IMG/VR virus record: IMGVR_UViG_3300025806_000014
Coordinates: 1-64,000 of that record
Length of the DNA stretch: 64,000 nt
Source: a virus
Reading direction: 5' to 3' (one strand)
Made by a program: the position numbers and the translations under genes. The notes beneath the pieces are model-generated. The model did not search any database, had not been told where the DNA came from, and worked only from the letters and a program-made list of their open reading frames with translations. Of the stretch, positions 1 through 32,755 are shown in pieces (positions within the stretch are counted from its first letter, which is position 1; each line of letters begins with the position of its first letter).

Positions 1-3000
1 GCTCCTTGAGTTCCTACAGCTCCTTGTTTACCTACTTCTCCTGTTGCACCCTGTAAACCAATTGCACCTTGATTACCTGCAGCACCTTGATTACCTACAG
101 CACCTTGATTACCAATTGCACCAGTTGCTCCTTGTAAACCTACAGCACCTTGATTACCAGTTTTACCTTGTTCACCAGCTGCACCTTGAGTTCCAGCTGC
201 ACCTTGATTACCTGCAGCTCCTTGATTACCAATTGCACCAGTTGCTCCTTGTAAACCAACGGCTCCTTGATTACCTCTTGCACCTTGATTACCTATGGCT
301 CCTTGTTTACCGACTTCTCCAGTTGCACCTTGCAATCCAATTGCACCTTGATTACCAATTGCACCTTGTTCACCTACTGCTCCTTGATTACCTGCTGCTC
401 CTTGGCCTCCAGTTTTACCTTGTTGACCTGTTGCTCCTTGATTACCTATGGCTCCTTGTTTACCAACTTCACCAGTTGCTCCTTGTAAACCGATTGCTCC
501 TTGTTGACCAACGGCTCCTTGATTACCTACAGCACCTTGATTACCTAAAGCACCAATCTTACCTTGTGTACCTGTAGCTCCTTGTAAACCTACAGCACCT
601 TGTTCGCCTACTGCACCTTGATTACCTGCTGCACCTTGAGTTCCAACTGCACCTTGATTACCTATGGCTCCTTGTTTACCAACTTCTCCTCTATCACCAG
701 TTGCTCCTTGTAAACCAATTGCTCCTTGTGTACCTGTAGCTCCTTGTAAACCTATAGCACCTTGTTCACCTGCTGCTCCTTGATTACCTGCAGCACCTTG
801 ATTACCTATAGCTCCTTGTTTACCGACTTCTCCAGTTGCGCCTTGCAATCCAATTGCACCTTGATTACCTGCTACACCTTGTGTACCTGTAGCTCCTTGT
901 AAACCAGCAGCTCCTCTTAATCCCGTTGCTCCTTGATTACCTATAGCTCCTTGTTTACCAACTTCACCTGTTGCACCTTGTAAACCGACAGCACCTTGAT
1001 TACCTATTGCACCAGTTGCTCCTTGTTCACCAATTGCTCCTTGATTACCTAGTGCACCAATCTTACCTTGTGTTCCTGTTGCTCCTTGAGTTCCAACCGC
1101 TCCTTGTTTACCAACTTCTCCTGTTGCACCTTGTAAACCGATTGATCCTTGATTACCTACAGCACCTTGATTACCAATTGCACCTTGATTACCTATAGCA
1201 CCAGTAGATCCTTGTAAACCTACAGCACCTTGTTCACCTATAGCTCCTTGTTTACCTACTGCACCAATTTCTCCTGTTGCACCTTGTAAACCGATTGATC
1301 CTTGATTACCTATTGCACCTTGATTACCTGCTGCACCTTGGCCTCCAGTTTTACCTTGTTGACCTGTTGCTCCTTGAGTTCCAACTGCACCTTGTTTACC
1401 AACTTCTCCTGTTGCACCTTGTAATCCAATTGCACCTTGATTACCAATTGCTCCTTGATTACCTACAGCACCTTGTTCACCTGCTGCACCTTGTGTACCA
1501 GTAGAACCAGTAAATCCTCTATCACCTTGTGATCCAGTAGAACCTTGTAAACCTACAGCACCTTGGCCTCCAGTTTTACCTTGTTGGCCTGTTGCTCCTT
1601 GAGTTCCAACTGCACCTTGTTTACCAACTTCACCAGTTGCACCTTGTAAACCAATTGCTCCTTGATTACCTATTGCACCTTGATTACCTACAGCACCTTG
1701 ATTACCTAATGCACCAATCTTACCTTGTGTACCTGTTGCTCCTTGTTCACCTGCAGAACCTTGTTTACCAACTTCACCAGTTGCTCCTTGTAAACCGATT
1801 GCACCTTGATTACCAATTGCACCTTGATTACCTACAGCACCTTGTTCACCTACAGCACCTTGTTCACCTGCTGCACCTTGTTCACCTACAGCACCAGTTG
1901 CTCCTTGTAAACCTACTGCTCCTTGGCCTCCAGTTTTACCTTGTTGACCTGTTGCTCCTTGAGTTCCTACAGCTCCTTGTTTGCCTACTTCTCCTGTTGC
2001 ACCTTGTAAACCGATTGATCCTTGATTACCAATTGCACCTTGATTACCTACAGCACCTTGTTCACCTGCTGCACCTTGTTCACCTGCTGCACCTTGTTCA
2101 CCTACAGCACCAGTTGCTCCTTGTAAACCTACAGCACCTTGGCCTCCAGTTTTACCTTGTGTACCAGTTGCTCCTTGTTCACCTGCAGAACCTTGTTTAC
2201 CAACTTCTCCTGTTGCACCTTGCAATCCAATTGCACCTTGATTACCAATTGCACCTTGATTACCAACGGCACCTTGATTACCATCGGCACCAATCTTACC
2301 TTGTGTTCCTGTTGCTCCTTGTTCACCTATAGCTCCTTGTTTACCTACTGCACCAATTTCTCCTGTTGCACCTTGTAATCCAATTGCACCTTGATTACCT
2401 GTAGCTCCTTGTAAACCTATAGCACCTTGGCCTCCAGTTTTACCTTGTGTACCAGTTGCTCCTTGTTCACCTATAGCTCCTTGTTTACCTACTGCACCAA
2501 TTTCTCCTGTTGCACCTTGTAATCCAATTGCACCTTGATTACCTATTGCACCTTGTTCTCCTGCTGCACCTTGGCCTCCAGTTTTACCTTGTTGACCTGT
2601 TGCTCCTTGAGTTCCAACTGCACCTTGTTTACCAACTTCACCAGTTGCACCTTGTAAACCGATTGCTCCTTGGTTACCTGTAGCACCTTGTGTACCTGTA
2701 GCTCCTTGTAAACCAGCAGCTCCTCTTAATCCCGTTGCACCTTGTTTACCTACAGCACCAGTAGATCCTTGTAAACCAATTGCTCCTTGATTACCTATTG
2801 CACCTTGATTACCAATTGCACCAGTTGCTCCTTGTTCACCAATTGCTCCTTGATTACCTAATGCACCAATCTTACCTTGTGTACCTGTTGCTCCTTGTTC
2901 ACCTGCAGAACCTTGTTTACCAACTTCACCAGTTGCTCCTTGTAAACCGATTGCACCTTGATTACCTTGTGCTCCTTGATTACCTACAGCACCTTGTTCA

Positions 3001-6000
3001 CCTGCTGCACCTTGTGTACCAGTAGAACCAGTAAATCCTCTATCACCTTGTGATCCAGTAGAACCCTGTAATCCAATTGCACCTTGATTACCTACAGCAC
3101 CTTGATTACCTGCAGCTCCTTGTGTTCCTGTTTTACCAACTTCACCAGTTGCTCCTTGTAAACCGATTGCACCTTGATTACCAACGGCTCCTTGATTACC
3201 AATTGCACCTTGATTACCTACAGCACCAATCTTACCTTGTGTTCCTGTTGCTCCTTGTTCACCTGCAGAACCTTGTTTGCCTACTTCTCCTGTTGCACCT
3301 TGTAAACCGATTGCTCCTTGATTACCTATTGCACCAGTTGCTCCTTGATTACCTACAGCACCATCTTCACCTTGCGTTCCTGTTGCTCCTTGAGTTCCAG
3401 TTACACCTTTATCTCCAGTTGCTCCTTGTAATCCTATAGCACCTTGGTTACCTATTGCACCAGTAGAACCTTGTAAACCGACAGCACCTTGATTACCTAC
3501 AGCACCTTGGTTACCGTCAGCACCAATCTTACCTTGTGTTCCTGTTGCTCCTTGAGTTCCAACTGATCCTTGTTTGCCAACTTCACCAGTAGCTCCTTGT
3601 AAACCGATAGCACCTTGATTACCTACAGCACCTTGTGTTCCTGTTTTTCCAACTTCTCCTGTTGCACCTTGTAAACCGATTGCTCCTTGTTCACCTGCTG
3701 CACCTTGTGATCCAGTAGAACCCTGTAATCCAATTGCACCTTGATTACCTATTGCTCCTTGTTCACCTGCAGCTCCTTGTTTACCTACTGCACCAATTTC
3801 TCCTGTTGCACCTTGTAAACCGATTGATCCTTGATTACCTATTGCACCTTGGTTACCTATTGCACCTTGGTTACCATCAGCACCAATCTTACCTTGTGTA
3901 CCAGTTGCTCCCTGAGTTCCAACTGCTCCTTGTTTACCAACTTCACCAGTTGCTCCTTGTAAACCTACAGCACCTTGATTACCTATAGCACCTTGTTCGC
4001 CTGCTGCACCTTGTTCACCTGCTGCACCTTGTGTACCAGTAGAACCAGTAAATCCTCTATCACCTTGTGATCCAGTAGAACCTTGTAAACCAACGGCTCC
4101 TTGATTACCTATTGCTCCTTGTTCACCTGCAGCTCCTTGTTTACCTACTGCACCAATTTCTCCTGTTGCACCTTGTAAACCGATTGCACCTTGATTACCT
4201 ATTGCACCTTGGTTACCTATTGCACCTTGGTTACCATCAGCACCAATCTTACCTTGTGTACCAGTTGCTCCTTGTTCACCTGCAGAACCTTGTTTGCCTA
4301 CTTCTCCAGTTGCTCCTTGTAAACCGATTGCACCTTGGTTACCATCAGCACCTTGATTACCAATTGCACCTTGGTTACCATCAGCACCAATCTTACCTTG
4401 TGTACCAGTTGATCCTTGTAAACCTATAGCTCCTTGTTCACCATCAGCACCTTGTGATCCGCTTGCACCCTGTAATCCAATTGCACCTTGTGTTCCTGTT
4501 TTTCCAACTTCTCCTGTTGCACCTTGTAAACCTATAGCACCTTGTTTACCTATTGCACCAGTTGCTCCTTGATTACCAATTACACCACCTTCTCCAGTTG
4601 CTCCTTGTAAACCGATTGCACCTTGGTTACCATCTGCACCTTGTGTTCCTGTTTTACCAACTTCTCCTGTTGCACCTTGTAAACCTATAGCTCCTTGTTC
4701 GCCGTCAGCACCCTGAGATCCAGTAGAACCAGTAAATCCTCTATCACCTTGTGATCCAGTAGAACCTTGTAATCCAATTGCACCTTGTGTTCCTGTTTTT
4801 CCAACTTCTCCTGTTGCTCCTTGTAAACCGATTGCTCCTTGTTTACCAATATCTCCAGTTGCTCCTTGGTTACCAATTACACCGCCTTCTCCAGTTGCTC
4901 CTTGTAAACCGATTGCACCTTGGTTACCATCAGCACCTTGTGATCCAGTAGAACCTTGTAATCCAATTGCACCAATCTTACCTTGTGTACCAGTTGATCC
5001 TTGTAAACCTATAGCTCCTTGTTCACCATCAGCACCTTGTGATCCAGTAGAACCTTGTAATCCAATTGCACCTTGTGTTCCTGTTTTTCCAACTTCTCCT
5101 GTTGCACCTTGTAATCCAATTGCACCTTGTTTACCTATTGCTCCAGTTGCTCCTTGGTTACCAATTACACCACCTTCTCCAGTTGCACCCTGTAAACCAA
5201 TTGCACCTTGATTACCAATTGCTCCTTGATTACCTATTGCACCTTGGTTACCATCAGCACCAATCTTACCTTGTGTTCCTGTTGCTCCTTGTTCACCTAT
5301 AGCACCACCTTCTCCTGTTGCACCTTGTAATCCAATTGCTCCTTGGTTACCATCTGCACCTTGTGTTCCTGTTTTTCCAACTTCTCCTGTTGCACCTTGT
5401 AAACCGATTGCTCCTTGTTTACCAATATCTCCAGTTGCTCCTTGGTTACCTATTGCACCACCTTCTCCAGTAGCACCTTGTAAACCTATAGATCCTTGTG
5501 ATCCGCTTGCACCTTGGCCTCCAGTTTTACCTGCTTCTCCCGTTGCACCTTGTAAACCGATTGCTCCTTGTTTACCAATATCTCCCGTTGCTCCTTGGTT
5601 ACCAATTGCACCACCTTCTCCAGTTGCTCCTTGTAAACCTATAGCTCCTTGTTCACCATCAGCTCCTTGTGATCCACTTGCACCTTGTAAACCAATTGCT
5701 CCTTGTTTACCAATATCTCCAGTTGCTCCTTGTGTACCTATTGCACCACCTTCTCCAGTTGCTCCTTGTAAACCTATAGCTCCTTGGGTACCTGCAGCAC
5801 CCTGAGATCCAGTTGATCCGATTGCGCCACCTTCACCCTGTTCTCCTGTTGCTCCTTGAGTTCCAACCAGTCCTTTATCACCAGTTGCTCCTTGTAATCC
5901 TGTTTTACCAACTTCTCCTGTTGCACCTTGTAAACCTATAGCTCCTTGGGTACCTGCAGCCCCTTGTGATCCGCTTGCTCCTTGTAAACCAACTTCACCT

Positions 6001-6962
6001 TGTTTACCTGAAGCTCCTTGTGATCCAGTAGAACCAATTGTACCTCCTTCTCCAGTTGCTCCTTGTAAACCTATAGCTCCTTGTGTACCTGCAGCTCCTT
6101 GTGTTCCAGTAGAACCAATTGTACCACCTTCTCCTTGTGTTCCTGTTGCTCCTTGGGTTCCAGTTACACCTTTATCTCCAGTTGCTCCTTGTAAACCAAT
6201 TTCACCGGCTTCTCCTGTAGCACCTTGTAAACCAATTGCTCCTTGTGATCCAGTAGAACCTATTGCTCCGCCTTCACCAGTTGCTCCTTGTAAACCTATA
6301 GCACCTTGTTTACCAATATCCCCAGTTGCTCCTTGGTTACCAATTACACCACCTTCACCAGTTGCTCCTTGTAATCCAATTGCTCCTTGTTCACCTGCAG
6401 CTCCTTGTGACCCAGTAGAACCAATTGTACCACCTTCTCCAGTAGCACCTTGTAATCCAATTGCTCCTTGTTCACCTGCAGCTCCTTGTGTTCCTGTTTT
6501 ACCTACTTCTCCTGTTGCTCCTTGTAATCCAATTGCTCCTTGTTCACCTGCAGCTCCTTGTGACCCAGTAGAACCAATTGTACCACCTTCCCCAGTAGCA
6601 CCTTGTAAACCTGCAGCTCCTTGTGATCCAGTAGAACCTATTGCACCGCCTTCTCCAGTAGCACCTTGTAAACCTACAGCTCCTTGTTCACCCGCAGCCC
6701 CCTGTGATCCAGTAGAACCTATTGCACCACCTTCTCCAGTAGCACCTTGTAAACCTACAGCTCCTTGTTCACCTGCAGCTCCTTGTGATCCAGTAGAACC
6801 AATTGTACCTCCTTCTCCTGTTGCTCCTTGTAAACCTATAGATCCTTGTGATCCAGTAGAACCAATTGTACCGCCTTCACCAGTTGCTCCTTGTAATCCA
6901 ATTGCACCTTGTGATCCGCTTGCACCCTGAGCACCAGTAGCACCAGCAGAACCAGCACCACC
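1..6962 (-). repeat. Collagen 9-bp/18-bp tandem repeat with higher-order blocks
   Basis: Recurring plus-strand units such as gcaccttgattacc and gctccttgtaaacc, encoding [18 protein letters not shown], etc. Confidence 0.97.
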
Positions 6963-7592
6963 ACCGCCACCGGTTGTACCTACATATCTAAATCCTGTTA
7001 CATATAATTCAAATCCTCCACTATAATTACCGCCGGCATTTGATGATATTGCACTTACTAAATCATTTGCTAGGAATAAAACTCCCATATCATAATTCCA
7101 TACCCAACCGACATAACCTGGATTATTATCTTGTTCAGCAGAAGTAAATATTTGATTGAATGTTCCAGCTGCACCATTTGGATCACCACTCCATAATATA
7201 ATACCATAACCACCTGATCCTGCACCAGATGCTTGTGGGACTGACGGTGGAGCAATCCAATTTTGTTTAACACCGGAAGATGGTGTATCTAAAGTATTAT
7301 AAGCTATCCATGTATTATCAGCTCCACTTGTAACTCTACTTAATCGCACTGCACTTGTTGCAGCAGAAAGATTCTCTATATTAGTAGGATCGGCAGCCGC
7401 ATTAGCTACAGCATCAGATAAAACATTTGCAGTAGGAATTAAATTATAATTTGTTAATATTCTAGAAGGTAAGACCTTAGGACTAAAGGCTAGTCTAGCT
7501 TCATACCATCTTGATCCTGAGTCAGCATCAATAACACCACCTGCCTGTACCTTAAAGGTTAACTTATTTACTTCTGTAGTACTAAATCCCAT
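3..7592 (-). CDS. Giant collagen-like fibre protein (>2530 aa, 3' end beyond the window); ~210-aa globular N-domain followed by ~773 Gly-X-Y triplets
   Basis: ATG at 7592-7590 ([31 protein letters not shown]...), translated by hand without a stop into the repeat. Gly codons stay at positions 3 mod 9 at 3, 3000, 4800, 6906 and 6960. Absent from the ORF track, presumably because its stop lies outside the window. Confidence 0.93.
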
Positions 7593-7621
7593 TTGTCTTT
7601 ATTCTCTTTTTATATTTATTC

Positions 7622-10255
7622 TTAACCTTGAACAACAGTTCCGTTAGCATAAATTAATTTTATAATTATTTGGTTAATACGAACCGCTGCATTAACAATT
7701 TGTAATTCCATATAAAAACCTTCCGTTGCGTTAAATCCTCCAAATGTACCGGAGATTGTATTATTTGGACCAGATACAGTTGTTCTACATGCAGCTGAAG
7801 CTGTATCAACACCACTAGGTGGATCCAATATTGTAGTAAAAGGTGCCGAACCATGTAATGATAAAGGAACTGCACTATAACCAGTATTTCCACCACCACC
7901 TGATTGATTTTCTTTTCTTATGTAAATCTTAATATTTTCATTAACTAAATCTTCATATGCAGATGCACCAACAAAATCACCATTAAATTCAAATTCAAAA
8001 GATGCAATAGGATCTGTTAAACTTCCTGTTGTATGAAATAACCTATGATAAGTAGAAGTTACTTGATACCCTGCACCACTATAGTCAGGATTAGTTCCTG
8101 ATTTATCTGGTTTATATGAAGCTAATGAACCAGTTAATTGACCATAAGATGGACTATCACCGTTATCTTTAAAGAATTTATGTGGTTGAACAACATTACT
8201 TCCTACTGTACATGCTTGGCAGAATGGAGAAGAAGAACCTGTTTGGTTTGCTAATCCTGTTGCAGTTAATGTTGCCGCTGGATTAAATGCTGAATAACTA
8301 CCTGTTCTTTCTAATCTATATTGCTCATCATCAAACCTTTCTCTTAAAGTATTTGAATTCCCTGTTGTAGAATAAGTATCAACTAGAATGCTAGCTCCAG
8401 TAGAGTTTACTGTATTACCAACGTCCCATGGGTCATAAACATTAGCCTGCGCAAATGCATCAGTATTTCTAAATCTATAGTTAGTATTATTTATAGCCCA
8501 TGTATCATATATGAAAGCTACATTTTGCACATCAAATTGATTTGTCCATGCTGGCATACTACCATAAGCTAAATTCCATGCCTCTAATTGTCTAGTAGGT
8601 AAACCATAATCTTGTCCTTGTATTCTAAAATTCCAAACAGCAGCTGTACTTCGACCTTGAGTATTAGCATTAAAATTATCAATATCAGTAACATCTAATT
8701 CAAATTGTGAATTAAGTATATAATATTCTACTCCACTTAAATGTTTTGTTAATATACTAGTTGGTGTAGTAGATTCTATTATAGCTGTAGTACCATTAAT
8801 ATTTGGCGTAGATGGGTCTGTATCAAAAAATACATCGTTAGTTTCACCATTATAAGATGTTGATGAATTTCCGTTTGGTCCAAAATATGTGTATGTATTA
8901 CCACCATCAGTTGTAGTATCTGTTGTCATTTGAAAAGAAACATGATAACGCCCACCAGTAAAACCATTTGCAGCAAGAATAGTTCCAGCATCTACTGTGA
9001 TTGTAACACTAGCTTTAAATTTAGTTGGTAAATCGGCTCCGTAATTTGAAACTTGAAGTGTTATACCTGTACCGTTTGTAAATGTTTGATTTTGATATAA
9101 TGCATTAGTTGCAGAAGTATCTAAAGTACCACCCGTTAAAATATTAATACCATCTGCTTGATATACTCTAACTATAATTTTGGCATCACCTGTTGCATCT
9201 GCACTAAAACCTGTACATGGATTTAAAGTATTGTATATGATTCTTCCTGTTGTTACGGGAGTATCATATGTAGCTTTATTTGAACCTGCCCACGGAGTAT
9301 TGCCTCCACTACCAGTTTGGAACGGATTACCTTCAGCTGTTGGAGAACTAATTCTAGGAGAAGTAAAAGATTTATTTCCATCCACACTAGCATCATTAGT
9401 CCCATCTGTTGTATTAAAGTGAGATAAGAAAGTTGGCGTTGGTATATAAACATTTACTTGGCCAGGAGTTCCACTATCTTCTGCCAATACATCGGTACCA
9501 ACAAAGTTCATTGTGGTATATCCAGTTGCACCTACTTGTACACCTTCATCTTTTACTATAAGACTTCCACCACCTGCAGAAGAACCTGTTGCACCAGTTA
9601 ATCCTATAGAACCTTGAGCTCCACTAGCACCTATTTCACCAGCAGCACCTTGTGCACCACTTGCACCTATTTCACCAACACCCGTTGCTCCACTAGCACC
9701 TATTTCACCAGCAGAACCTTGAGCTCCACTAGCACCTATTTCACCAGCAGCACCTTGTGCACCACTTGCACCTATTTCACCAGCAGAACCTTGAGCTCCA
9801 GTTGCACCAACACCAGTTGCACCAATTCCACCAGCAGCACCCTGTGCACCACTTGCACCAATTCCACCTGCAGCACCTTGAGCACCAGTTGCACCAATTC
9901 CACCGGCTGCACCTTGAGCACCACTTGCACCTATTTCACCAGCAGCACCTTGAGCCCCAGTTGCACCTGGATTACCAGCACCACCGCTACCTACAAACTT
10001 CCAATTATTAATATTTGTATAACCTGCAACATTTAATAAAATATAAACGCCATTATTTGCAGGTGTAGAATCTTCTGCAACAGTTACAGTCATACCTACA
10101 TAAATATAAGTACCACCGTCATTGGCTTCCCATGTTGTAGCTAAAAGTAAATCAGCTTGAGTAGGTACAACAGCTCTTGCATCAAATGCACCAGCTACTT
10201 GCGGTTCAAAATTTGCCGATATTCCTAAAATTCCATTTGTTCTATTTCCTGCCAT
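7622..10255 (-). CDS. Collagen-containing virion fibre/adaptor protein (877 aa)
   Basis: N-terminal NFEPQ..DARAVV domain, about 44 Gly-X-Y triplets with two GV interruptions, and a Thr/Gly/Asn-rich beta-type C-terminal region. Confidence 0.75.
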   Translation of the reverse strand: MAGNRTNGILGISANFEPQVAGAFDARAVVPTQADLLLATTWEANDGGTYIYVGMTVTVAEDSTPANNGVYILLNVAGYTNINNWKFVGSGGAGNPGATGAQGAAGEIGASGAQGAAGGIGATGAQGAAGGIGASGAQGAAGGIGATGVGATGAQGSAGEIGASGAQGAAGEIGASGAQGSAGEIGASGATGVGEIGASGAQGAAGEIGASGAQGSIGLTGATGSSAGGGSLIVKDEGVQVGATGYTTMNFVGTDVLAEDSGTPGQVNVYIPTPTFLSHFNTTDGTNDASVDGNKSFTSPRISSPTAEGNPFQTGSGGNTPWAGSNKATYDTPVTTGRIIYNTLNPCTGFSADATGDAKIIVRVYQADGINILTGGTLDTSATNALYQNQTFTNGTGITLQVSNYGADLPTKFKASVTITVDAGTILAANGFTGGRYHVSFQMTTDTTTDGGNTYTYFGPNGNSSTSYNGETNDVFFDTDPSTPNINGTTAIIESTTPTSILTKHLSGVEYYILNSQFELDVTDIDNFNANTQGRSTAAVWNFRIQGQDYGLPTRQLEAWNLAYGSMPAWTNQFDVQNVAFIYDTWAINNTNYRFRNTDAFAQANVYDPWDVGNTVNSTGASILVDTYSTTGNSNTLRERFDDEQYRLERTGSYSAFNPAATLTATGLANQTGSSSPFCQACTVGSNVVQPHKFFKDNGDSPSYGQLTGSLASYKPDKSGTNPDYSGAGYQVTSTYHRLFHTTGSLTDPIASFEFEFNGDFVGASAYEDLVNENIKIYIRKENQSGGGGNTGYSAVPLSLHGSAPFTTILDPPSGVDTASAACRTTVSGPNNTISGTFGGFNATEGFYMELQIVNAAVRINQIIIKLIYANGTVVQG
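9580..9978 (-). repeat. 36-bp collagen repeat (GAQGAAGEIGAS)
   Basis: Visible in the translation and as near-identical 36-nt DNA units. Confidence 0.9.
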
Positions 10256-11422: not shown

Positions 11423-11815
11423 TCAACCCTTCATGATATTTAAAAACTTGTCAAATGATACTAGGTGCTTTTTCTTCTTTTTCTTTTTCTTCTTTTTTAT
11501 AGGCTCCAATAAATCACCGCTTCCGGTTTGTTGGCTACTAAAAGAATTTGCAGAACCTGGATTTCCAGGAAGTGTAGCATTACCCATACTCTGAACATTC
11601 ATGTTCGGATTAAGGTTTACCGTACCGGACTCGTTTTCTCCTATCTTGTTAGGTATTTCTTTTTCGTCAGTTTTAACAAAATCTTCTAATGTTTTAACTG
11701 GCAATTTTGACAACTCTTTAACCTCATCTGAAACATCAGAGGATTTAAGTTCTCCTTTCTTATATTGTAATGCTAATGCAAAAAATCTTCTTTGCGCTTT
11801 TGATTGAGCTGGCAT
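11423..11815 (-). CDS. DUF3008-like small basic protein with a poly-Lys tract
   Basis: MPAQSKAQRRFFALALQYKKGE...LEDFVKT matches the DUF3008 pattern as I recall it; K10 run near the C-terminus. Confidence 0.65.
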   Translation of the reverse strand: MPAQSKAQRRFFALALQYKKGELKSSDVSDEVKELSKLPVKTLEDFVKTDEKEIPNKIGENESGTVNLNPNMNVQSMGNATLPGNPGSANSFSSQQTGSGDLLEPIKKKKKKKKKKHLVSFDKFLNIMKG

Positions 11816-29737: not shown

Positions 29738-32700
29738 TTAATTTCCTCCTTTGTTATGTACCAATATTTCATTTGTATAATAGTTATGATTACCACTAAC
29801 ATTGGTTATATTGTAAACAGTATATAAACCTTGCTCCTCTTTTGTAGATACTACTTTAGCCTTTTCTCCATTTAATTGATATACTTCAAAACCTTCTCTT
29901 AATTCAGCTGCATCTATTAGACCTACATTTTCACCATCTATATGATAGAATGGGTGATGTTCAGTTACCTTAAGAGTAGATCCATTGTCAAAGTCTAATA
30001 CAATTACCATACCTACATTTTCTATTACATCTAATCCACCTACGGTACCTACCTCAGTTGTTTGTTTTGATTCATTCCATGTTATTAACTCTTCACCTGA
30101 AATAATATCTTCAATATTTTTTGTATCTCCATTCGCTAAAGCTATTTCAGTCCCGGCTACAAAACACCCTGGTGAATTATCATAACCACTAATTGTTATT
30201 CTATTATTGTTAGTAGAGCCAATAGAAGATGACAGTATAGACCAGCCATGTTGTACTAGTGTTGAGAATGCATTAGCATCAGCAAAATTTACCTCAGCAC
30301 CCTGTTGTTGTACTTCTTTGCCATCCCAAAACATATCAATCATTTTATATCTACCGATCCCATCACCAGCATCAGTTGAATCTGTTGATACTGTTATTAC
30401 TTGATAACCATCAATAACCTGTGCAGAGCTACCACTACTGCTTGCTGCTGCCCACCAAGAGGTCCAGTTTCCTGTTGATGTAGGCGACTTAATTCTAAAC
30501 ATTGGTATCCTTAGATCAACCGACCCATAATTGCTAACAGAAAGTGTACCTCCTTGTTTAGTAGCCGAGTTGTACGCTAATGCCTGTACGTATAGTTTAA
30601 CTAATAACCTTTGCCCAGGGTATCCACCAATAGGAAAAGTAACTTTATAATCATAGCCCGGGTTCGATTGGCTAAATGCCGGCGACGGCTGAATAGATGG
30701 GTCAGCAGTAAAACCATAACCCGGTCCAAAGTTAAGAGAAATATACGGAACTGTTAATTCTAGAGTTGTTGGCATTCCTAAAGAAGGATATTGACCACTA
30801 GGTGTTAGACTTTGTGGTGTTCCAATCTGTCGTGTATTCCACCCATAATTCATAGGAGCGGACTGAGTTGAGCCCGGTGAATAAATTACTGAAGGGGTGT
30901 TATTAATAGATGAGTTTCTACCAGTTGCTCTTTTTAATACCCACGGTGATGCAAATGCAATTTTATTTTTACTTGCAGTAAAGTATTCATTATTATTACC
31001 ACTGTCTCTTACAGAAAATCCTAATGTATTATCCCACATAAAATTTATCGGAGCTACCGGACTCTGTGGTCCTTCGCTTCCCATTGCTATAGCTAATAAA
31101 CCTGCATCTAAACCGGTAGCCGTTTGAGTTCCACCAGTCCATGCTTGTAACATTGCACCTGGGGCTAAATCAGTAACACCATTATTTCCAGTTAATTCAA
31201 ATATATTAGTTGAACCGCTAGCATAACCAGTAGGATCTTTATATATAAGAGTCTGAAATGATTGTGGAGGGTATGATGCAATAAACCCTGCTATTGTTTG
31301 TGGTCCTACAAACCTTGTATGAGGTTGAGGAAGGTTCGTTGTAGGATTAACTCTTCCATAATCAATAACTATACTACAATTATTTAATGCAGTCTGAGTA
31401 GTTTTCTTTAAAATAATTTGACTATTTCCTTGTATATAAATATCACCTCCTATTACAGTGTTAGGGGCCTGTGAAAGGTTTTCAATAACAATATCCCCAG
31501 TGTTTGAAGTACTAGAATTAGATTGTTGAATATTAATATTTCCTGTACTGTTTGTATCTAATGAAATTCCACCACTTCCCGAGTTTAATGATATTGTACC
31601 TGCTGGATTTGAACCAGTTCTTGTATTTAATTTTAATTGACCACCTGAGTATAATTGTATATTTTGATTAGTTGAAGAAGTTAATTGAATTAAACCTGCT
31701 CTTATTTGTGCTACACCTACTTGTGCTGTTTGTTGTAATACAACTGGAAAGCCTGCACCTAATTCCATAAGAGTTGAACCTGCAGTACCTGCTGTAGTTA
31801 AACTAAACTTATTTCCACCTGGAGCGGAACCAACACCTACATTAATTGTAAAATCAGAATTCTCTCCGGAAAAATCCTGTGTAGTTCTTTGTCCTGTTTG
31901 AAATCCTATTGCTTTACCTGCAGTAAAACTTTGAGACTTTGCAGGGGTATTAAGTTGAATTCCTATTAAATCATCTGAGGTAGTTGGTGTCGTAGCTACT
32001 TTAGGCACATCTAAAATTAGACGGTCATCTTGTCCAATTTTAATATTGGATAAATTAGTCATTTCACTATTTACACCAGGCTGCCCTTGCCAATATTTTT
32101 CACCAGGAATTGCTCCTCCTCCTTGAAAAACAATAGCCTTACCACCAGAATCTTTTTGATGAATGAGTAAAGAAACATTATTACTCTGTGCACCAATTGC
32201 TATTTCATTAGGAATTATATAAGCATTTGTTAAAGGAATACCAGTCAGAGCAGTAGTCGTCGTAACAGCACCACCAATCATAACAGTAGGAATTCCTTCA
32301 TTAGTAGTGGTAGCACCTTGCCCACTACCAATAGGACCATTATAAATTGCAGTTTCTTGGTTTATTGATATAGGTCCACCAAATAAATCTCCCATACCAC
32401 CACCTGGTCCTTGTGGGCCCATTGGCCCTTCTAAATCAATAGTAGTCTGAGACCATGTTAATCCAGTATATTCCCAAACAACTCCATTAAATTGTAAATA
32501 ATAATCACCTTCTAATGGCGTACTAGTAGGTGGCACTGCAATTGGTGTGACCCCAGGTGCGGTTGTAGAAGTATCTTCATACCAGGTAGTTCCTTTAGGT
32601 CCTCTTCCACCAGCAGGCCCTACTGGTCCTATTGGCCCGGCTGGTCCTGCAGGCCCTCCACCATTAAGTAACAATTGGTCAAAATTAAAATTTGTTTTAT

Positions 32701-32755
32701 CGACCAGTTGTGAAATAGTATCTGATGCTATTATTTCTTGTATAGTGATTGGCAT
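29738..32755 (-). CDS. Tail fibre/baseplate-attached protein with short collagen segments and a C-terminal Hint domain (1005 aa)
   Basis: ASDTISQLVDKTNFNFDQL (gp9/gp10-like N-terminus), GPAGPAGPIG, C-terminal CFVAGT...VTEHHPF...VYNI...LVHN. Confidence 0.8.
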   Translation of the reverse strand: MPITIQEIIASDTISQLVDKTNFNFDQLLLNGGGPAGPAGPIGPVGPAGGRGPKGTTWYEDTSTTAPGVTPIAVPPTSTPLEGDYYLQFNGVVWEYTGLTWSQTTIDLEGPMGPQGPGGGMGDLFGGPISINQETAIYNGPIGSGQGATTTNEGIPTVMIGGAVTTTTALTGIPLTNAYIIPNEIAIGAQSNNVSLLIHQKDSGGKAIVFQGGGAIPGEKYWQGQPGVNSEMTNLSNIKIGQDDRLILDVPKVATTPTTSDDLIGIQLNTPAKSQSFTAGKAIGFQTGQRTTQDFSGENSDFTINVGVGSAPGGNKFSLTTAGTAGSTLMELGAGFPVVLQQTAQVGVAQIRAGLIQLTSSTNQNIQLYSGGQLKLNTRTGSNPAGTISLNSGSGGISLDTNSTGNINIQQSNSSTSNTGDIVIENLSQAPNTVIGGDIYIQGNSQIILKKTTQTALNNCSIVIDYGRVNPTTNLPQPHTRFVGPQTIAGFIASYPPQSFQTLIYKDPTGYASGSTNIFELTGNNGVTDLAPGAMLQAWTGGTQTATGLDAGLLAIAMGSEGPQSPVAPINFMWDNTLGFSVRDSGNNNEYFTASKNKIAFASPWVLKRATGRNSSINNTPSVIYSPGSTQSAPMNYGWNTRQIGTPQSLTPSGQYPSLGMPTTLELTVPYISLNFGPGYGFTADPSIQPSPAFSQSNPGYDYKVTFPIGGYPGQRLLVKLYVQALAYNSATKQGGTLSVSNYGSVDLRIPMFRIKSPTSTGNWTSWWAAASSSGSSAQVIDGYQVITVSTDSTDAGDGIGRYKMIDMFWDGKEVQQQGAEVNFADANAFSTLVQHGWSILSSSIGSTNNNRITISGYDNSPGCFVAGTEIALANGDTKNIEDIISGEELITWNESKQTTEVGTVGGLDVIENVGMVIVLDFDNGSTLKVTEHHPFYHIDGENVGLIDAAELREGFEVYQLNGEKAKVVSTKEEQGLYTVYNITNVSGNHNYYTNEILVHNKGGN
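29753..30166 (-). other. Hint (intein-like/BIL) autoprocessing domain
   Basis: Block A CFVAGT, block B TEHHPF, terminal HN followed only by KGGN-stop; no homing endonuclease. Confidence 0.88.

Follow-up and report, generated by a model that had tools for sequence, protein, structure and literature searches.

Collagen-like proteins of bacteria form triple helices without hydroxyproline, their stability depending on Pro at the X position of the Gly-X-Y triplet, on Y positions occupied by Thr or Gln, on charged residues and on hydration (PMC8968730, PMC7824840). Reviews on bacterial collagens credit KGE and KGD pairs with an additional 15-17 °C of stability in host-guest peptides. Phages also encode such proteins ('Bacteriophage collagen', Smith et al. 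1998, cited in PMC1079782). The collagen-like prophage tail-fibre proteins EPclA and EPclB belong to E. coli O157:H7, and EPclA forms a triple helix by circular dichroism (CD) without hydroxyproline, melting at 42 °C (PMC3368898). Long thin appendages have been described on several large phages, including the ~200 nm head filament of phiCbK, with the Gly-rich gp76 (2,799 amino acids, aa) as its candidate protein (PMC3556154, in which the word 'collagen' does not occur). Atu_ph07 and vB_PcaM_CBB bear capsid-associated 'hairy whiskers' (PMC6102473), and the Tenacibaculum phages PTm1 and PTm5 have head-fibre-like appendages (Kawato 2020, as cited in PMC8643167). Here we analyze a 64,000-nucleotide (nt) stretch of viral DNA, positions 1 to 64,000 of IMG/VR record IMGVR_UViG_3300025806_000014 (hereafter the window), at whose edge lies a gene for a very long, Pro-free Gly-X-Y protein. 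Our literature search found no description of a Pro-free or giant collagen-like phage fibre. We consider it rather probable that this gene, of which the window holds the 5' 7.6 kb, is real and encodes a giant, homotrimeric, collagen-like fibre of the virion, of micrometre scale.

The initial annotation, made from the letters of the window alone, had reported a minus-strand frame running from ATG 7592 off the window edge, and this frame is indeed free of in-frame stops over its 2,530 visible codons. It had also placed about 773 in-phase triplets from position 6960; the long in-phase array stands, but the exact figures do not, as the count gives 776 from position 6980. Gly occupies 776 of 776 third positions from residue 205 (nt 6980-6978) to the window edge, with zero interruptions, whereas in the other two phases of the array frame the longest Gly run is below 5. 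A Gly run of such length is not attributable to chance. The Pfam Collagen model (PF01391) scored 993.4 bits on the visible protein, in seven stretches, against a gathering cut-off of 27.2. The array has both sequence marks of the Pfam family, in-phase Gly over long runs and a score above the gathering threshold; imino acids and KGE/KGD pairs, stabilizers typical of studied collagens though outside the Pfam definition, are absent from it.

Pro is absent from all 2,326 array residues, as the initial annotation had said of the X and Y positions, compared with 10 Pro in the 204-residue N-terminal domain (N-domain), and His, Trp, Tyr, Cys and Met are missing from the array as well. The X position is dominated by Ala (302), followed by Glu (94), Asn (81), Leu (80), Lys (62), Ser (61) and Thr (55), and the Y position by Gln (315), followed by Thr (146), Ile (139), Val (78) and Ala (42). 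These residues make up 41 kinds of triplet, led by GAI (100), GAT (95), GNQ (81), GLQ (77), GAV (48) and GTQ (48), with GEQ (39), GAA (32) and GKQ (32) next, a tally in keeping with the GAI/GAT/GAV/GAA and GLQ/GNQ/GKQ/GEQ/GTQ/GSQ types first noticed. KGE and KGD pairs, sought across the whole array, numbered zero. The proposal that the usual collagen stabilizers, Pro or charge pairs, are lacking here therefore held, taking those stabilizers as named in PMC8968730, PMC3368898 and PMC7824840. The visible protein has a mass of 227.6 kDa and an isoelectric point of 4.5. At the collagen helix's rise of 0.286 nm per residue, the array would, if collagen-like, be 665 nm long. Longer helices are known than that of collagen I, to which it had been compared, namely those of annelid cuticle collagens.

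The array departs from a simple tandem repeat. Its 74 GLQG[AS]TG motifs are spaced 4-19 triplets apart, its DNA repeat copies are 60-90% alike, the longest exact repeat measures 119 nt, and of the 31-mer positions 60% are unique and 40% repeated. Base 1 of the window is base 1 of the sole contig (83,616 nt), for which CheckV gave a completeness of 32%, implying a genome of perhaps about 260 kb. A collagen frame is lacking at the opposite end of the contig, and the two ends have no repeat of at least 30 nt in common; we therefore rejected a circular continuation of the gene and regard it as cut by the contig end. In an attempt to extend the contig, the window's first 50 nt had no exact match in IMG/VR. 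The T4 late-promoter octamer occurs 11 times in the window versus 14.6 expected, with no exact copy before the fibre gene.

The N-domain occurs once in the contig (A1 profile, E 5e-78) and matches positions 1-205 of phrog_33494 (E 5.7e-27). At E<=1e-3 it matches 194 cluster representatives, nearly all starting at their first residues; six of the best 150 representatives have at least 10 triplets, and the largest total is 106. Our set of related loci comprised 13 from IMG/VR and 68 from a Joint Genome Institute (JGI) metagenome collection, with a stop visible in 7 of the 13 (L009, among these, is cut short by a frameshift) and in 27 of the 68. Most complete orthologues are 972-1,261 aa long and consist of the N-domain, 0-100 triplets and a conserved C-terminal domain (C-domain) of ~650 aa. 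The stalks of orthologues are Pro-free in some lineages and Pro-rich in others, and close lineages differ in stalk chemistry as well as in length. The C-domain is beta-rich, ends in ...IRLDQIQY... in L004-L013-type orthologues, and matched no known family; both scans of IMG/VR for it returned known short genes only. Its AlphaFold2 (AF2) model, built from 18 sequences, had a mean predicted local distance difference test (pLDDT) score of 46.9 and for that reason was kept out of the fold search, and an ESM Atlas search gave no usable match.

Two of the IMG/VR loci, L006 (13426-16569) and L010 (12945-18110), carry two or three tandem paralogues sharing the N-domain, the last of which in each has a long Pro-free array running off the contig. 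The second L006 paralogue has a globular 'bead' of ~110 residues inserted within its collagen. At L009 (3114-4466), the array shifts out of the Gly-X-Y frame, reads WFRNSRYSRYYWFTR... repeats and then stops, a frameshift inside the repeat that either arises from sequencing or assembly error or marks a broken gene.

Giant arrays recur among the relatives. Eleven of the 68 metagenome loci show at least 200 triplets, none of them with a visible stop, and in the 27 genes that do show a stop the count never exceeds 100. In a maximum-likelihood N-domain tree of the window and 49 of the 81 loci, all eight giants fell in one 16-row clade (support 97/92); the other eight rows are genes cut early by contig ends, and none of the 16 contigs has a complete gene. 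The sister group consists of short, Pro-rich, complete genes. L003, L035-L037 and L040, of this sister clade, have N-domains 75-79% identical, short Pro-rich stalks and the standard C-domain, and the L036 stalk holds 42 Pro in 85 triplets.

Several giants exceed the window's array. In L031 and L033 (N-domain 89% identical), 3,535 aa are visible, including an unbroken run of 1,104 triplets; these lengths are lower bounds, as each locus ends at the 10-kb flank limit within a contig that continues. L030 has 1,086 unbroken triplets, and L043-L046 (71% identical) have runs of 993-1,070. About 10 kb of array is 100% identical in L043, L045 and L046, with agreement extending over 8.4 kb in L044 and 3.7 kb in L042; L042-L046 are five JGI assemblies, not necessarily all from separate samples. 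In L043, the 1,070-triplet run, which would span ~0.92 micrometres, gives way to non-collagen sequence, of which ~100 residues are visible up to the end of the locus. One array at least therefore has a boundary on either side. This post-array tail has no relatives in IMG/VR, no Pfam family and no similarity to the bead of the L006 paralogue. Searches for full-length giants, weak as nulls because they score word-sharing candidates only, found no N-domain region among proteins of 1,391-4,428 aa and no L043 tail among proteins of 1,944-6,188 aa; the C-domain profile had four matches among proteins of 1,139-3,250 aa, all of 1,154-1,226 aa. Giant length is a property of the clade and not peculiar to one assembly.

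The array was also compared with public sequencing runs. Twenty of the 24 listed runs (14 studies) contain part of a 9-kb stretch (window 1-9000), and 17 hold at least half of the sampled words. Four runs (X1, X2, X12 and X15) were compared with this stretch via Logan unitigs and contigs in 30 bins, and all 30 bins were covered in all four. The listed array unitigs had depths close to those of the flank in X1 (21.2-22.8 versus 21.5) and X15 (11.4-11.6 versus 11.7), with 1,901-2,238 versus 2,346 in X12 and 45-63 versus 58.7 in X2. This single-copy depth argues against inflation by concatenated strains. Summed Logan contig depth in array bins was 2-13x that of the flank, a value unusable as copy number because 157-1,641 contigs per run fit two places.

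The runs themselves merit a remark. X1 (seawater, 2018), X2 (freshwater, 2017) and X15 (unnamed organism, 2025) have no listed differences from window 1-9000; such uniformity is unusual for an environmental phage and may reflect one sampling campaign or a widespread clonal lineage. X12, a seawater metagenome of 2024 (study P11), departs from the window at seven flank positions, and its flank reaches a k-mer depth of ~2,350 although the run comprises only 834 million letters. At such a depth, a phage of ~260 kb would account for most of the run, and an isolate, enrichment or bloom sample therefore probably exists.

The AF2 model of the N-domain (pLDDT 86.9) is a beta-sandwich with an N-terminal helix, residues 1-40 being less confident. 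A profile search of the PDB with the N-domain gave nothing meaningful (E 0.33). In BFVD, nine predicted viral proteins match the fold at E<=1e-3, all of them phage proteins, including proteins of Caulobacter phage CcrColossus, Agrobacterium phage Atu_ph07 (two) and Tenacibaculum phage PTm1 (weak, TMq 0.42). The link of these look-alikes to appendages is circumstantial, because no paper among those consulted ties the appendages to these proteins. When ESMFold2 was given three copies of residues 1-325, the interface score ipSAE reached 0.53, compared with 0.00 for the best of three controls; in a calibration made with two copies, not three, 21 of 30 solved one-chain pairs and none of 23 single chains attained the mark used. 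Runs of the trimer model share at least 73% of contacts, with partner pLDDT of at least 58 and mean pLDDT of 58-60. The confident contacts involve residues 2-17, 34-50 and 164-177, and Gly positions 208, 214, 217, 220, ... 235, a pattern that supports, as far as a model can, an in-register triple helix nucleated by the N-domain. The pass may in part be the model's memory of collagen, since collagen helices are abundant among solved structures. A search of the PDB with 396 array residues placed 8zxl ('spindlefibril/axialfibril', with Pro-containing GAPGSQGAPGLQ repeats) and collagen I on top; we rejected both as composition-driven matches.

A number of observations weigh against a real giant fibre as we read it, and several of these concern the array as assembled. 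The gene is truncated within the array, so that the visible part has neither C-terminus nor stop and the total length is open-ended. No independent assembly reproduces the array: L001, with an N-domain 99% identical, stays colinear with the gene for only ~1,230 nt, and the divergence of L032 and L031 from the window sets in earlier still. L031 (WLWG01000221.1) and L033 (WLWF01000057.1) are two assemblies of one phage, with identical flanks and equal array lengths, yet their arrays are 95.5% identical with 160 gap openings, which would reflect either a naturally unstable repeat order or strain exchange, or else unreliable assembly. Repeat order is not readable from the Logan unitigs, because those in the array are shorter than 300 nt, nor from the Logan contigs, whose length is likewise insufficient. 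A real gene whose array was mis-assembled, with shuffled blocks or concatenated strain variants, so that 776 is overstated or misordered, would fit these findings as well as the contig end within the array, the exact repeats of up to 119 nt, the 40% of repeated 31-mer positions, the breaks of the close strains L001, L002 and L028 at 242, 51 and 32 triplets, and the many joints between array positions in Logan contigs. We nevertheless regard this as unlikely: listed unique unitigs deep in the array match single-copy flank depth in X1, X12 and X15, and roughly in X2; the unique 31-mer positions must all find a place in the gene; misjoins of in-phase repeats alter the order and not the amount of unique sequence; and relatives reach 1,070-1,104 triplets, with one array identical in three to five assemblies. 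We conclude that 'at least about 776 triplets' is sound and that the exact order is provisional.

Other observations concern the fold and the location of the protein. Imino-acid-free stretches are locally unstable in collagen models (PMC7824840), and our literature search found no experimental case of a Pro-free triple helix. Reviews credit imino acids or charge pairs, and hydration, for stability (PMC8968730, PMC7824840), and the array has neither Pro nor KGE/KGD; the trimer model has a low mean pLDDT, and its confident contacts end at about residue 235. On these grounds the array could be no collagen helix but an entropic bristle, a hydrated and flexible tether that is mostly disordered or of polyglycine-II type and whose chains trimerize only at the ends. 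We think this improbable, because a triple helix demands strict Gly at every third position while tolerating bulky side chains (Gln, Ile, Leu, Lys, Glu) at X and Y, a constraint for which a disordered linker would have no need. Periodic turn motifs are also absent, the GLQG[AS]TG motifs lying at irregular intervals, the modelled contacts sit on Gly positions, and the source waters were probably cool. Ala, Glu, Lys and Leu at X and Gln, Ile, Thr and Val at Y are reportedly among the better non-imino residues on the Persikov host-guest scale, which counts against a tether. Foldseek found no PDB match to the N-domain at E<=1e-3, and the best match in VIA wide (Z 5.2, to an immunoglobulin-like part of the YSD1 tail protein over 89 residues) is at the level of a common arrangement. 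This want of a solved virion homologue in Foldseek, VIA and PDB profile searches, together with the gene's place after a replication and enzyme block (helicase, primase, single-stranded DNA-binding protein (SSB), adenylyltransferase-like) and outside the baseplate block, would suit a protein that is not part of the virion but is released or displayed in the course of infection, for example as a matrix, aggregation or decoy fibre. This seems very unlikely to us, given that the adjoining gene encodes a tail-fibre-like collagen protein, that Shewanella phage 1/4 and Vibrio phage 1.121.O have homologues within the structural block, ~5 kb downstream of the gene for the major capsid protein, and that all nine BFVD look-alikes are phage proteins, among them those of Atu_ph07, CcrColossus and PTm1, phages or groups described as bearing whiskers, a head filament or head-fibre-like appendages. 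As for the far end of the protein, the sequence after the L043 array is unrelated to the C-domain of the short orthologues, and that domain may not be the terminus of the giants.

In the virion fibre that we favour, the N-domain would trimerize, set the register of the chains and dock the fibre to the particle. The Pro-free array would then form a thin triple-helical stalk of at least 0.66 micrometres, held by the ladder of backbone Gly N-H...O=C bonds, by hydration and by side-chain contacts of Gln, Thr, Ala, Ile and Val, and stable without imino acids or Lys-Gly-Glu/Asp salt bridges. By analogy with relatives, the distal end, missing here because the contig stops inside the array, would be a non-collagen domain binding something on or around the host. 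Stalk length would be evolvable through repeat expansion, from 0-100 triplets in most of the family to more than 1,000 in the giant clade. A long flexible stalk might let the virion reach farther when it first meets cells or particles in dilute water, though this is speculative. The triple-helix fold, the location on the virion (head or tail) and the role in host capture are inferred. A bolder version, which we hold tentatively and believe somewhat less probable than its negation, is that a clade of marine phages, probably of Bacteroidota, makes micrometre-long homotrimeric helices free of imino acids and classical salt bridges, stabilized by Gln/Thr hydration and beta-branched residues alone, with length tuned from 0 to more than 1,100 triplets as a 'fishing line' that sets the encounter radius.

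All large open reading frames (ORFs) on the contig lie on the minus strand. The phage context comes from genes for baseplate wedge and baseplate hub proteins, an Ad2-like adaptor, helicase, primase, SSB and DNA ligase. Of the 31 phage records matched by a 1,303-aa protein, 23 belong to phages of Prevotella (15), Tenacibaculum (5), Chryseobacterium (2) or Flavobacterium (1), the remainder being phage PAU (2) and uncultured huge phages (6). The source is a large marine myovirus, probably with Bacteroidota as host. The initial annotation's idea of a very long Gly-X-Y gene in a phage was well founded. The protein belongs to a fibre-type family with the order of N-terminal domain, variable-length stalk and distal domain, and its neighbour is collagen-like and tail-fibre-like.

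The features discussed are collected in Table 1. The position of the fibre gene after an 877- or 749-aa fibre-like gene and genes of 442, 942 and 449 aa is conserved in L006 and L010, where the neighbours are 46-84% identical and in the same order; the 877-aa neighbour itself is 46-49% identical to the gene preceding the fibre gene in these two loci. The 442-aa protein is kept at 59% identity in both. The runs of the 1,639-aa protein have 3 Pro in 300 residues and are built of the same units as the giant array. Pro-containing triplets are in use elsewhere in the phage, as the Pro-rich run of the 1,005-aa protein attests. Glycosyltransferase families PF00535 and PF00534 had no match on the contig, from which no conclusion follows because the fragment is only 32% complete.

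Table 1. Positions in the window of the fibre gene, its parts and the other genes discussed
Feature	Position	Strand	Basis
Fibre gene, 2,530 codons, ATG 7592	3..7592	minus	stop-free ORF, open at window edge
Collagen-like array, residues 205-2530, 776 unbroken Gly-X-Y, 0 Pro	3..6980	minus	phase count and Pfam Collagen; contig end cuts array
N-terminal globular domain, residues 1-204, phrog_33494 family	6981..7592	minus	profile match; N-terminal in relatives; predicted trimerizer
Upstream syntenic neighbour, 877 aa, 46 collagen-like triplets with 1 Pro	7622..10255	minus	tail-fibre PHROG matches
442-aa protein, cytidylyltransferase-like domain (E 7.1e-07), three genes upstream of fibre gene	11815-13143	minus	domain match
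1,005-aa protein, no PHROG match, one short Pro-rich collagen run of eight triplets (GPAGPAGPIGPVGPAGGRGPKG)	29738-32755	minus	translation
3' part of 1,639-aa collagen-like protein (contig 63,404-68,323)	63404..64000	minus	Gly-X-Y runs of 77, 13 and 10 triplets

For collagen biophysics, the array offers a natural unbroken Gly-X-Y sequence of more than 2,300 residues (more than 3,200 in relatives) without Pro or KGE/KGD, and with it a direct test of the minimal needs of a triple helix. It may also serve as a template from which collagen materials free of hydroxylation could be made recombinantly. If the bolder version above is right, it would represent a third, undescribed chemistry of collagen stability and the longest uninterrupted triple helices of any virus. 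Fibres several times the length of the particle would alter adsorption models for dilute water, and the fibre gene would supply a gene for the 'hairs', whiskers and head fibres of large phages. For metagenomics, giant genes systematically break assemblies, as the absence of a complete gene from all 16 giant-clade contigs illustrates, and are therefore under-reported.

Among the known systems, the filaments of large phages resemble the proposed fibre in being long, thin and flexible and in being thought to make the first contact with the host; the available text of these papers links them neither to N-domain look-alikes nor to collagen (PMC3556154, PMC6102473, PMC8643167). Predicted structural look-alikes of the N-domain are nevertheless encoded by Atu_ph07, by CcrColossus, a relative of phiCbK, and by PTm1, these being matches to predicted models. 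The cyanomyovirus P-SSM2, a marine T4-type phage, has in orf028 extended Gly-X-Y runs read as a trimeric fibre; this tail-fibre candidate contains Pro, Ser and Thr, and the available text describes no micrometre-scale array (PMC1079782). EPclA and EPclB likewise have a phage-encoded Gly-X-Y stalk between globular or trimerizing domains, with Gln and Thr favoured at Y, but differ in having Pro at about half of X positions, frequent charges (GPK, GPQ, GPA, GER, GET) and short collagen domains (PMC3368898), whereas the window's array has 0 Pro, 0 KGE/KGD and at least 776 triplets. EPclA-type flanking domains (PfN, PCoil, PfC) were not found, Pfam giving Collagen only in the visible 2,530 residues, although Pfam's coverage of those domains is unconfirmed. 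Scl1 and Scl2 of Streptococcus pyogenes and other bacterial collagen-like proteins share non-hydroxylated helices, a globular trimerizing nucleator and hydration by polar residues; in the studies cited, however, Pro makes up ~19-31% of X, stability relies on charges and helices span 75-237 residues (PMC8968730, PMC7824840), compared with 0 Pro, few charges and more than 2,300 residues here. The window's array has the preference for Gln and Thr at Y in common with the known phage and bacterial collagens, and is an order of magnitude longer.

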